Source of the DNA: an uncultured Gammaproteobacteria bacterium
GTDB taxonomy: Bacteria; Pseudomonadota; Gammaproteobacteria; Steroidobacterales; Foliamicaceae
Length of the DNA stretch: 64,000 nt
Assembly: GCA_951828235.1 (NCBI GenBank)
Contig: OX639965.1
Span: forward strand, 515,191 to 579,190
Reading direction: 5' to 3'
Numbering within the stretch: the stretch's first letter is position 1; each line of letters starts with the position of its first letter. The translations under genes and the position numbers were made by a program. A model generated the notes under the pieces. It was given only the letters and a program-made list of their open reading frames with translations, was not told the DNA's origin and ran no database searches. Shown one piece after another: positions 38,281-42,596 of this stretch.

Positions 38281-39762
38281 TTACGCGGCCCTCGGATAAA
38301 TCTCCGACAACAGCCGGCTGCTGCCGTCCGGCTGAACGATGCGGCAATGCTCGCGGCGCAGCAGGCGCGGATCGACGACTCCGCAGGAATGCGCGATGAT
38401 CTTCAGCTCTTCCTCAATGCGGCGCTGGTAATTGGCCACGCTCACCGCCTTGGTCGGCGGATCGAGGCCGCGCTGCAGGCGCCGGTTGTGGGTGGTGATG
38501 CCCGTGGGGCAGGTGTTCTTGTTGCAGCGCATCGCCTGAATGCAGCCCAGCGCGAACATGAAACCCCTCGCGGACACCGCAAAGTCCGCCCCGGCGCACA
38601 GCGCCCAGGCCGCTTCGGTCGGGGTGATGAGCTTGCCGCTGGCCACCACCCGCACGCGTTCGCGAAGACCGTGGTTTTCCAGGGCGTCCACCAGCATGAT
38701 CAGGCTCTCCCTCAGCACCATGCCCACATTGTCCATGAGCGGCATCGGGGCCGCGCCCGTGCCGCCGTCGCCGGAATCCACGGTGACGAAGTCGGGTGCG
38801 CTGTCCGGCCCGCGACGGTTGATCAGTTCGAAAAGTTCATCCAGCCAATGCGGGTTGCCGATCACAGCCTTGTATCCGGTGGGCTTGCCGCCGACGTCAC
38901 GCACGCGGTTGATCAGGTCCAGCAACTCCCCGTTGTTGCTCACCTCCCTGTGGCGGTTCGGGCTTACCGCGTCCTCGCCCGGGCGGATGCCCCGAATGCC
39001 GGCGATCTCCTCGGTCACCTTCGCTCCCGGCAGGATCCCGCCCTTGCCCGGCTTGGCTCCCTGGCTCAGCTTGATCTCGATCATCTTCACCTGCGGGTTA
39101 GAGCCCACCTCCCTCAGGCGCTCCTCGCTCAGGGCGCCTTCGGGCGTGCGCACGCCGTTCTTGGCCGTTCCGAACTGGAACACCACGTCGTTGCCCGATT
39201 CGAGATGCCAGGGCGAAAGTCCGCCCTCGCCCGTGTTCATCCAGCATCCGGCCATCGCGGCGCCCTTTCCCAGCGCCGTCACCGCGGGCTTTGAAATGGC
39301 CCCGAAGCTCATTCCGGAAATATGGAAGATCCGGTTGGTGGTGTACGGATTCGGGCCGTCCTTGCCGATCGTCACTTCGGACGTGTCCCGGTATTCCTCC
39401 TCAAGCAGGCTGAAGGGCGCGTTGGCGAAGATGGCTGTGCCCGGCCAGCGCGTCTCGCGGGTCGAACCGAAGGCCACGGTCATGGAGCCGGCGCTGGAGG
39501 CCCGGTCCACCCAGTTGCGCTGGGCCCGATTGAACGGCATTTCCTCGCGGTCCATGGCGAACATGTACTGCCGCATGAACTCGCCCAGGCCCTCGAAGAC
39601 ACGGCGGAAGCGGCCGATGACCGGGTAGTTGCGGCGAACGGCGTTGGCGGTCTGCGCGAGGTCCACCATCAGCAGGAAAAGCAGGACCAGCAGCGTGGTC
39701 CCGACCGCCAGAAGGAACAGGCTGGCCAGGATGTGCAAGGCTTGATCAACAAAGTCCGTCAT
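38281..39762 (-). CDS. FMN-binding glutamate synthase family protein (stand-alone, N-terminal TM)
   Basis: SGMSFG, NTGEGG, KLSQGAKPGKGG, GCIQAMRCNKNTCPTGITT. Confidence 0.9.
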   Translation of the reverse strand: MTDFVDQALHILASLFLLAVGTTLLVLLFLLMVDLAQTANAVRRNYPVIGRFRRVFEGLGEFMRQYMFAMDREEMPFNRAQRNWVDRASSAGSMTVAFGSTRETRWPGTAIFANAPFSLLEEEYRDTSEVTIGKDGPNPYTTNRIFHISGMSFGAISKPAVTALGKGAAMAGCWMNTGEGGLSPWHLESGNDVVFQFGTAKNGVRTPEGALSEERLREVGSNPQVKMIEIKLSQGAKPGKGGILPGAKVTEEIAGIRGIRPGEDAVSPNRHREVSNNGELLDLINRVRDVGGKPTGYKAVIGNPHWLDELFELINRRGPDSAPDFVTVDSGDGGTGAAPMPLMDNVGMVLRESLIMLVDALENHGLRERVRVVASGKLITPTEAAWALCAGADFAVSARGFMFALGCIQAMRCNKNTCPTGITTHNRRLQRGLDPPTKAVSVANYQRRIEEELKIIAHSCGVVDPRLLRREHCRIVQPDGSSRLLSEIYPRAA

Positions 39763-39805
39763 GCTCAACCCCCGGCTGATGATGCATTGCTTGCGGACGG
39801 CTGCC

Positions 39806-39881
39806 TGGTGGGCCTGGCAGGACTCGAACCTGCGACCAAGTGGTTATGAGCCACCTGCTCTTACCACTGAGCTACAGGCCC
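39806..39881 (-). tRNA. tRNA-Ile2 (CAT anticodon, lysidine type)
   Basis: GGGCCTGTAGCTCAGTGGTAAGAGCAGGTGGCTCATAACCACTTGGTCGCAGGTTCGAGTCCTGCCAGGCCCACCA; 76-nt cloverleaf with encoded CCA; C4:G69 and C5:G68 pairs as in TilS substrates; TATACT upstream at 39895-39900. Confidence 0.9.
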
Positions 39882-39935: not shown

Positions 39936-40556
39936 TCAGCGGCGGCGTTTGCGCCAGGGACCGGGAGCGGTCTTTTCCCCGGCGGGGTGGGAATGCGGAA
40001 GTATGGCCAGGCGGGCAAGAAGCTGGCGCTTCGGATCATCGGATTGCGCAGCCCGCAGCAGTTCGCTCCATAAGTCGGGACGGTCGGCAAAGCGTGCCTT
40101 GAGGATGCTTGCGGAGTGGGCGGCGAGACTCTGGATTTCACCGAAATTCAGGTTCCCTACGGGCTCGCCCTCCTGGCGGGCCGTGCCCAGCCAAAGCGAC
40201 GAGAGCGTGTGGTTCTGCTGCGCATCCTGGGTCAGCCAGGTCATCAGCGCCGCGCCGAACACCTGCTCCGCGGCATCTTTTCCGCGAAAACTCCGCCGCT
40301 CCCCGTCTTCGCTGTCACGCACCGTCCCTGCCCTCTCGACGTCACCACGGGTAACGGTAACCAGCAGCAAAGGCACGCTGGCAACCGCGTCGCGTTGCGA
40401 GTCCGTCAGTGCCCTGATTTGGCCGCACAGCTCATCGGGAAGCCCGTACCTGCCGCCCTCCGCATCGCCCTCATGCCGAGCGATCAAATCGACAAAGCGA
40501 CGATTGATTGCGAAGATCTCGTCCAGCCGTTTTCGTTCTTCCGACCCGCCTGCCAT
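39936..40556 (-). CDS. Protein with two tandem FlhD-like repeats
   Basis: LDEIFAIN...GLPDELCGQIRALTDSQRDAVAS and LWLG...LNFGEIQSLA...ARFAD resemble FlhD helices (by-eye comparison); AGGAGG RBS. Confidence 0.6.
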   Translation of the reverse strand: MAGGSEERKRLDEIFAINRRFVDLIARHEGDAEGGRYGLPDELCGQIRALTDSQRDAVASVPLLLVTVTRGDVERAGTVRDSEDGERRSFRGKDAAEQVFGAALMTWLTQDAQQNHTLSSLWLGTARQEGEPVGNLNFGEIQSLAAHSASILKARFADRPDLWSELLRAAQSDDPKRQLLARLAILPHSHPAGEKTAPGPWRKRRR

Positions 40557-40729
40557 CCGTTCCTCCTTCCGGCCGCGGCCGTGCTGAAGCAGTTTTGGAT
40601 TCCCGTTCAGACAAAGCGGCATTTTCGCCGGTTCATGTGATAGTTGCTGTTTTTGTTCGTTTACTATTAAGACAAGCAGCATGGTTTTGATCAACCCGGA
40701 AAAAGTGGCCGAATTGCCCAATTTTTGAA

Positions 40730-40758
40730 TTGCAATCTTAGTCCGAATTCGCTAGAAC
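40730..40758 (+). promoter_or_regulatory. Putative sigma70 promoter of the flhC-like gene
   Basis: TTGCAA-N17-TAGAAC, ending 9 nt before an ATG with no SD. Confidence 0.45.
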
Positions 40759-40767
40759 ACCTGCGCC

Positions 40768-41352
40768 ATGCGAGTTACCCAAAGCCGTTACGAGGGAGAA
40801 CTGGACCGGTTCCACCTCGCCATCCGCATGCTCGGCCTGCAGGCCCGCACGAGCACAATCGGACGCTACACGGGGCTTTCCAGCGACCGTATACGCAAGG
40901 CCTATGTCAGCTACGTGGCCGAGCACGGCAAAAACAGGCTGCCCCGCCGCAAGCGCGGGCGGCCGCCCAGCCGCGTGGCCCATTTTTTCAAGAGCCGCGA
41001 TCGGCACTGCGAATCCACCGTTTTGGTGTCCCTTTTCATGCATGCCGGACTGCTGGTGCCGGACGGTTCGTTCGGATGCATGCTGCCGGGCAGGCTGAGC
41101 CTGCTTTCGCAGGGGCGCCGCCTGTGCGATGCCTACGAAATGCACCGCCACATGGTGCCCGGCGGAGAAATGTCCCTGGAACTCGCCGCCACCCTGCTGC
41201 GCGCCCTGGCGGAGACGCAGGAACTGGCTCTTGCCGAATGCGAGTCCTGCGGCGCGCTATACGTCCACGACGCCTACGCCCTCGACTACGGGCGCGGCCC
41301 CTTCTGCGAACAACCGGTGCCGGGCGGCCCGGCGCGAATCACCTGCCGCTAG
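40768..41352 (+). CDS. FlhC-like transcriptional regulator
   Basis: LAIRMLGLQAR...TGLSSDRIRKAY, RGRPP, CDAYEMH, ELALAECESCGALY...PFC, matching FlhC architecture. Confidence 0.72.
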   Translation: MRVTQSRYEGELDRFHLAIRMLGLQARTSTIGRYTGLSSDRIRKAYVSYVAEHGKNRLPRRKRGRPPSRVAHFFKSRDRHCESTVLVSLFMHAGLLVPDGSFGCMLPGRLSLLSQGRRLCDAYEMHRHMVPGGEMSLELAATLLRALAETQELALAECESCGALYVHDAYALDYGRGPFCEQPVPGGPARITCR

Positions 41353-42330: not shown

Positions 42331-42596
42331 AGTGTGCTGTCCCATAAGTTCGTTGCCTTTCAGAGCGGGCCTGAAGCGTCAATGCAAGGCGCCGTCCGCA
42401 GGGAATACTGCCCGTATTACCCAGGGCGGCAACGCCGCAGTGGCGCTTCAGGCCCGCTCCCGTAGGGCGTGTCCCCTGCGGCGTGTGGCCGCGTTGCGGC
42501 CCTTGGCAATGGGGGCTACCATTCCCGGCGGACCGCGCCTTGCCACACGCCGCAGGGGACACGCTGAAAGGCAACGAACTTATGGGACAGCACACT
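42331..42596. mobile_element. MITE-like element with perfect 33-bp terminal inverted repeats and two internal hairpins
   Basis: agtgtgctgtcccataagttcgttgcctttcag (42331-42363) is the exact reverse complement of 42564-42596; internal IRs 42364-42378/42444-42458 and 42468-42489/42542-42563; no transposase. Confidence 0.85.

Follow-up and report, generated by a model that had tools for sequence, protein, structure and literature searches.

Can the two FlhD monomers of an FlhDC-type regulator be carried on a single polypeptide, and what would such a regulator control in a bacterium that lacks core flagellar genes? Both questions are raised by a locus in a 64,000-nucleotide stretch (the window) of contig OX639965.1 from an uncultured gammaproteobacterium. 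A sequence-only reading of the window had proposed that one gene encodes a single-chain tandem FlhD-like protein (P0001, the D' subunit below) and that this protein joins the product of a neighbouring gene (P0002) in a D2C2 activator. Few bacterial transcription factors consist of two different subunits, and the FlhDC-type regulators belong to this small group. The master regulator of flagella in Enterobacterales and Burkholderiales is FlhD4C2 (PDB 2AVU, 1G8E and 8J56); FlhD is a single-domain protein of ~116 residues that forms a homodimer, and the flhDC genes form an operon. To our knowledge, regulators of this type are known from only two settings, namely the control of flagella in enterics and Burkholderiales and that of transfer on resistance plasmids and ICEs. 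Both the tandem FlhD-like architecture of P0001 and the FlhC identity of its partner are real and have good support in the evidence described below. We consider it probable that the divergent gene pair encodes the two subunits of an FlhDC-type heteromeric regulator that has a fused D' subunit and is chromosomal and, in this genus, non-flagellar.

The divergent gene pair

The P0001 gene runs from an ATG at 40556 to a stop codon at 39936–39938, with a GGAGG ribosome-binding site 5–9 nucleotides upstream of the start (Table 1). A longer alternative start is possible at a TTG at 40721; the ATG at 40556 is taken as the start because 28 aligned homologues, nearly all ~206 residues long, share the same methionine. 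These close homologues (n = 28) are 52–93% identical to P0001. The P0002 open reading frame is divergent from the P0001 gene across the spacer between them. Within P0001, the linker has no counterpart in the alignment with FlhD, and residues 81–90 reach a pLDDT of 63 in the 83-sequence AF2 model discussed below. The sequencing runs that hold the locus show even coverage and look like DNA metagenomes.

Table 1. Features of the D'–C locus in window coordinates.
Feature	Coordinates	Strand	Basis
P0001 gene (206-residue double-FlhD protein)	39936..40556	-	Open reading frame and translation; stop codon included
N-terminal FlhD-like domain, residues 8–72	40341..40535	-	hhalign against FlhD profile
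Linker, residues 73–92, variable and acidic	40281..40340	-	Poor conservation among close homologues
C-terminal FlhD-like domain, residues 93–188 (profile match 108–186)	39993..40280	-	hhalign against FlhD profile
P0001 tail ending in WRKRRR, residues 189–206	39939..39992	-	6 K/R versus 1 D/E; pLDDT ~65
Divergent control region, 211 bp	40557..40767	.	Spacer alignment, n = 18
Candidate operator, imperfect inverted repeat AAAAAGTGG-N9-CCAATTTTT	40700..40726	.	Weak support; putative role
P0002 gene (194-residue FlhC homologue)	40768..41352	+	hhalign against FlhC profile
tRNA-Met(CAT), 54 bp downstream of the P0001 gene, co-oriented	39806..39881	-	ARAGORN; conserved context only

The FlhC partner

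P0002 had been described as FlhC-like, and profile comparison establishes it as a true FlhC homologue. A C-like profile of 22 proteins from related loci aligns with an FlhC profile, built from E. coli FlhC together with 25 FlhC proteins encoded next to FlhD genes, with 98.3% probability (hhalign, E = 2.5e-14, score 92.9, shuffle maximum 19.8), and the 159 aligned columns amount to full-length FlhC similarity. P0002 itself aligns with E. coli FlhC over residues 15–170 in BLASTP (E = 3e-4) and scores 20.8 bits as a single sequence against PF05280, under the 27-bit cut-off. A divergent C-like gene lies beside the D' gene in each of the 34 related loci examined, down to 25–30% identity, so that the two genes are consistently found together.

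In E. coli FlhC, a four-cysteine zinc site is formed by C137, C140, C157 and C160. C-like proteins of the distant clade carry the same CxxC-x15-CxxC arrangement. In the window's clade, the CxxC is followed by GRGPFC, in which the third cysteine is replaced by glycine, so that three of the four cysteines are left (P0002 residues 158–180, window 41239–41310). Three relatives have GPCC.

Distribution across the order and relation to flagella

Full-length copies of D' are found in 119 of the 151 genomes of the order and in 43 of its 54 genera, nearly always as a single copy. In a 401-genome sample of the phylum, the only full-length match is in the genome described here, and the other 21 matches are ordinary single-domain FlhD. 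The named relatives are uncultured Gammaproteobacteria, some of them labelled Candidatus Foliamicus, and DNA of the locus occurs in sponge metagenomes.

FliG and FlhA are both absent from this genome, so that the flagellar class II regulon which FlhDC would control is lacking here. None of the 14 sampled genomes of the genus has FlhA either, and all 14 keep the pair intact. Across the order, FlhA is present in 60 and absent from 59 of the genomes that carry the pair, and present in 6 and absent from 26 of those that do not. The pair is therefore commoner in genomes with FlhA (60/66) than in those without it (59/85), and an ancestral link to flagella may exist. Together with the absence of any single-domain FlhD among the order's 151 genomes, this association would suit an explanation in which the pair is the order's flagellar master regulator, left over or repurposed in the window's non-flagellated genus. 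Genome reduction and shared ancestry, however, confound this association, and the listed genomes without the pair are mostly small. On nine single contigs that hold both genes, moreover, the pair lies at least 480 kb from flhA on seven and ~50 kb from it on two, which belong to one family. Non-enteric Gammaproteobacteria generally use FleQ/FlrA-type master regulators, a further point against a flagellar role. Given the 59 genomes that keep the pair without FlhA, we regard this explanation as unlikely. The pair clearly persists without flagella and, with no flagellar regulon in the genus, must control something else there.

Two FlhD-like halves in one chain

The FlhD homology of P0001 is visible at the profile–profile level only. 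P0001 alone has no Pfam match (E up to 10) and no NCBIfam match, and falls short of the 27-bit cut-off of the FlhD family PF05247. An exhaustive profile search yields 188 representative clusters of the P0001 family, nearly all of them full-length matches of ~190–220 residues, and the family profile used below comprises 83 diverse members that are 20–32% identical to P0001. The FlhD signal emerged only after this search added relatives of 20–30% identity: a PDB profile search with close homologues only gives chance matches, while the 83-member profile finds FlhD through positions 8–85 (8j56_A, E = 8e-6; 1g8e_A, E = 3.7e-4; 5hxg_B, E = 4e-4). The FlhD profile for direct comparison combines eight enteric FlhD sequences with eight diverse FlhD-like proteins; the latter come from matches in other gammaproteobacterial genomes because a homologue search started from E. 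coli FlhD listed nothing but near-identical sequences from enterics. With these profiles, both halves of the P0001 family match FlhD.

The comparison of residues 1–92 places positions 8–72 on FlhD 5–72 with 96.4% probability (hhalign, E = 1.2e-9, score 50.8), in the very register in which the first half had been aligned with FlhD by eye. When the columns of the FlhD profile are shuffled, 100 control comparisons score 9.0±2.2 (maximum 18.5), and the reversed profile scores 8. Pfam matches among the relatives are consistent with this result: PF05247 is detected in five of the 28 close homologues, at E-values of at least 0.004, and in 24 of the 83 wider members, with a best E-value of 1e-7. In three inspected members (P0056, P0057 and P0058), all of the matches lie below 27 bits, the best at 26.5, and those in P0056 and P0058 fall on the N-terminal half.

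The second half had been said to repeat the helix pattern of the first. Here an alternative has to be weighed in which only the N-terminal half derives from FlhD, and the C-terminal half is an unrelated helical domain, such as a helix-turn-helix, whose likeness stems from composition or periodicity. The missing Pfam match of P0001 would fit this explanation, as would a score of only 27.6 (E = 1.9e-4) between the C-terminal half and the canonical enterobacterial FlhD profile, and a loop modelled at residues 124–135 where FlhD has a helix. A direct comparison of the two halves is also modest (score 22.4, E = 7e-4), although it exceeds its shuffle maximum of 14.7. Against the diverse FlhD profile, however, residues 108–186 align with FlhD 22–98 over 77 columns with 95.2% probability (hhalign, E = 2.4e-8, score 47.4), whereas 100 column shuffles score 9.5±1.8 with a maximum of 14.1, and the reversed profile reaches 12.2. 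In P0057, moreover, PF05247 falls on the C-terminal half in the same register, with model positions 21–72 on residues 109–160 (E = 7.9e-6, 26.5 bits). The three alignments agree with one another throughout: residue 36 of the N-terminal half corresponds to FlhD 35 and to residue 122 of the C-terminal half, with a constant offset of 86 from N to C. Finally, the C-terminal half of AcaD, a plasmid-encoded subunit discussed below, matches FlhD likewise (E = 3.8e-7). An unrelated C-terminal domain is thus very unlikely, and the profile, Pfam and AF2 evidence, the last of which gives both halves a similar helix pattern, bears out the description of P0001 as a single-chain tandem of two FlhD-like domains.

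Short FlhD-like proteins of ~95–105 residues, which carry a WWW motif and adjoin FlhC homologues, are encoded in other gammaproteobacterial genomes (loci L008, L010, L011, L014 and L017). These diverse short proteins are closer to the C-terminal half of D' (score 49.7) than canonical FlhD is (27.6). A different arrangement is present in another gammaproteobacterium (locus L015, genome G153, contig 14), where a 452-residue frame opens with an FlhD-like segment (Pfam E = 0.003), continues with a region resembling the FlhC N-terminus and closes with a hydrophobic stretch of membrane-like character. On these features, it may encode a fused, membrane-anchored FlhDC-like protein.

One element of the sequence-only reading finds no support, namely the likening of the RKRRR tail of P0001 to the RKKRA tail of FlhD. 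A WRKRRR-type basic tail occurs in 26 of the 28 close relatives but in only seven of the 83 wider-family members, and RKKRA is restricted to enterobacterial FlhD among the FlhD proteins compared. Each tail is clade-specific in its own family and so provides no evidence of homology, and the resemblance is probably coincidental.

Structure model

A first AF2 model, based on the 28 close homologues, is poor (pLDDT 59.5), and Foldseek finds no FlhD match for it. The model from the 83-sequence alignment reaches a pLDDT of 86.4 and a pTM of 0.84, with low-confidence parts at the linker (73–92), the loop at 124–135 and the tail. It contains only two strands of three residues each, at 66–68 and 152–154; one lies in each half, on segments aligned with the FlhD strand LVCHFRF. 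In a Foldseek comparison of this model with the PDB, FlhD chains rank first. The top match, 2avu_B, has a probability of 0.95, a target-normalised TM of 0.70 and an rmsd of 2.7 Å over 100 columns; the other FlhD chains reach 0.72–0.73 (8j56_B/E/A) and 0.63 (1g8e_A), while other inspected matches have a TM of at most ~0.36. The Foldseek E-values are weak (0.8–5), and the output leaves the matching half of P0001 unspecified. Weak E-values are usual for a helical domain of ~100 residues. The model is consistent with P0001 being a single-chain pseudo-dimer.

Control region

The ~100 bp of the spacer nearest the P0002 gene are conserved among 18 spacers of the window's clade and include invariant blocks such as ATTGCAA, TTGAT and TGTCTnAATA. 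The candidate operator is an A-tract/T-tract repeat in which 8 of the 9 arm positions are complementary in seven of the 18 spacers, the window's included, and fewer elsewhere; shuffled sequences reach 8/9 complementarity in ~1% of trials. This candidate was found with a script, while the repeat tool reports no inverted repeat in the spacer and a sigma-70 consensus scan reports no promoter. The sister clade has a shorter spacer (~123 bp) with clearer TGG-N10-CCA palindromes, which are absent as such from the window's spacer. Because the promoter and repeat scans are negative and the candidate operator is imperfect and only partly conserved, autoregulation of the pair is a guess, although the conserved spacer block suggests that the pair may also act on its own promoters.

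The P0002 gene has no Shine-Dalgarno sequence, whereas its distant-clade counterpart has a GGAG site. At window 40730–40770, a conserved TTGCAA is separated by 17 nt from TAGAAC, and this second hexamer ends 9 nt before the P0002 ATG. Such an arrangement would suggest that the P0002 mRNA is leaderless or nearly so; the consensus promoter scan made no call there.

Genomic neighbourhood

The pair is flanked by metabolic or housekeeping genes, with synteny within clades. The flanking genes of the window's clade comprise an NmrA-like gene, a PrpD-like gene, a gene for a Glu-synthase-domain protein and tRNA-Met, and those of the distant clade NUDIX, ABC-2 transporter and SRAP genes. The tRNA-Met gene lies downstream of the D' gene in 10/10 loci of the window's clade (52–83% protein identity) and in 0/3 distant-clade loci. 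At one locus (L004), the genes past tRNA-Met differ (sigma-70/FecR/TonB receptor), and the far side of the tRNA gene may thus be an insertion hot spot.

A tRNA gene 54 bp from the D' gene would suit the view of the pair as a mobile-element relic or cargo, namely an AcaCD/SetCD/BisDC-type transfer activator that has lost its element. So would the fused design of AcaD and the fact that the non-flagellar FlhDC-like activators in the literature examined are all borne by plasmids, ICEs or genomic islands (PMC4542580, PMC7423338). Such an origin is highly improbable, however, since the locus and its neighbours are the same in relatives at 52–83% identity, the tRNA adjacency is kept throughout the window's clade, the pair is mostly single-copy across the 119 genomes of the order that carry it, the flanking Pfam assignments include neither integrases and relaxases nor components of type IV secretion, tblastn against plasmids returns chance matches only for P0001 and none for P0002, and the GC content of the locus is unremarkable.

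Two differences between strains are also seen near the pair. Inside the gene for the Glu-synthase-domain protein (38281–39768, minus strand), contigs of four sponge-associated runs skip 318 bp (window 39037–39360; from 39037/39041 to 39356/39360), which points to related strains without an in-frame segment of 106 codons that is present in this genome. In contigs of three runs, 42329 (or 42298) is followed directly by 42598, which means that related strains lack an element of ~268 bp. Sequencing depth over this element is 3–6 times higher, with numerous loose ends that indicate many copies elsewhere; it fits a putative MITE at 42331–42596.

Proposed mode of action and significance

Taken together, the pair would act as a vertically inherited, single-copy chromosomal regulator of the order, located outside mobile elements. 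Its C subunit is an FlhC homologue of the usual kind and has a putative zinc-ribbon region. The D' chain, with its two FlhD-like domains joined by a variable linker of ~20 residues, would probably fold back on itself into the shape of an FlhD2 dimer. With one D' chain in place of each FlhD dimer, the predicted complex of P0001 and P0002 is D'2C2, not D4C2. The two proteins may associate with each other, bind DNA and regulate their own genes.

A more far-reaching version of this proposal is plausible but somewhat doubtful as a whole. It holds that the pseudo-dimer sets a D'2C2 stoichiometry, that the pair is an old, order-wide, non-flagellar global regulator in a sponge symbiont, and that D' and AcaD share an ancestral tandem. 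If true, the transfer activators of plasmids and ICEs and this host regulator would together form a single branch of the FlhDC superfamily, separated from single-domain FlhD before the activators of mobile elements appeared.

The picture of FlhDC-type regulation would be widened by a branch that is chromosomal and order-wide and neither flagellar nor mobile. With "monomers" that are free to diverge, a natural single-chain FlhD2 could also help to address which face of the FlhD dimer contacts FlhC and which contacts DNA. A further prediction concerns AcaD, a subunit of the master switch that governs the spread of IncA/C multidrug-resistance plasmids: if AcaD is a double-domain protein, the expected stoichiometry of its complex is altered. 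For the sponge-associated gammaproteobacterium itself, the P0001/P0002 pair marks a conserved candidate regulator.

Comparison with known systems

FlhD4C2 shares with the window pair the homology of both subunits: both domains of P0001 are FlhD homologues and P0002 is an FlhC homologue. P0001 differs from the single-domain FlhD homodimer in having 206 residues with two FlhD-like domains fused in one chain, and its N-terminal domain lacks an equivalent of FlhD residues ~73–98. The P0001 gene lies beside that of its FlhC partner; unlike flhDC, however, the two genes are divergent and do not form an operon, the genome lacks flagellar genes, and the Pfam scores are below the gathering cut-offs.

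BisDC of ICEclc is a non-flagellar heteromeric activator. Its C subunit (DUF2857) is FlhC-like by fold prediction; in the other subunit, the ParB-domain protein BisD, no FlhD domain is detectable (PMC7423338). Unlike the window pair, BisDC is ICE-borne and acts in a feedback loop for transfer competence. In the D' family, DUF2857 matches are found in three of the 83 members and are faint, with E-values of at least 0.0017.

In IncA/IncC conjugative plasmids, the master activator is AcaCD, to which SgaCD (SGI1) and SetCD (SXT/R391 ICEs) are related. AcaD (vcrx148) has 202 residues and AcaC 183 (PMC3915882). AcaC and AcaD co-purify, and activation of transfer genes requires both (PMC4207636); their genes are co-directional and overlap within an operon that is carried by a conjugative plasmid and repressed by Acr1/Acr2 (PMC4207636, PMC4542580). 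Published accounts call AcaD weakly FlhD-like and assume FlhD4C2-like hexamers, with no mention of a double domain (PMC4207636, PMC4542580, PMC8373056). In profile comparisons with the pAR060302 copies, AcaD residues 18–84 align with FlhD 3–71 (E = 5e-5) and residues 107–179 with FlhD 10–82, the match cited above. The P0001 family profile is colinear with AcaD over 158 columns (score 32.3; shuffled AcaD 12.0±2.3, maximum 20.4), and AcaC matches the C-like profile (E = 1.5e-6). A fused double-FlhD subunit is therefore already present in a characterised activator, and the design of P0001 is not unique. Like the window pair, AcaCD consists of two subunits, a double-FlhD D protein of ~200 residues and an FlhC-like C protein of ~185 residues, and is non-flagellar. 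The two systems are similar in sequence at the profile level only. Unlike AcaCD, and in place of carriage on a plasmid, ICE or genomic island, the window pair is divergent, has a syntenic chromosomal context with no transfer genes nearby, and is single-copy and order-wide.
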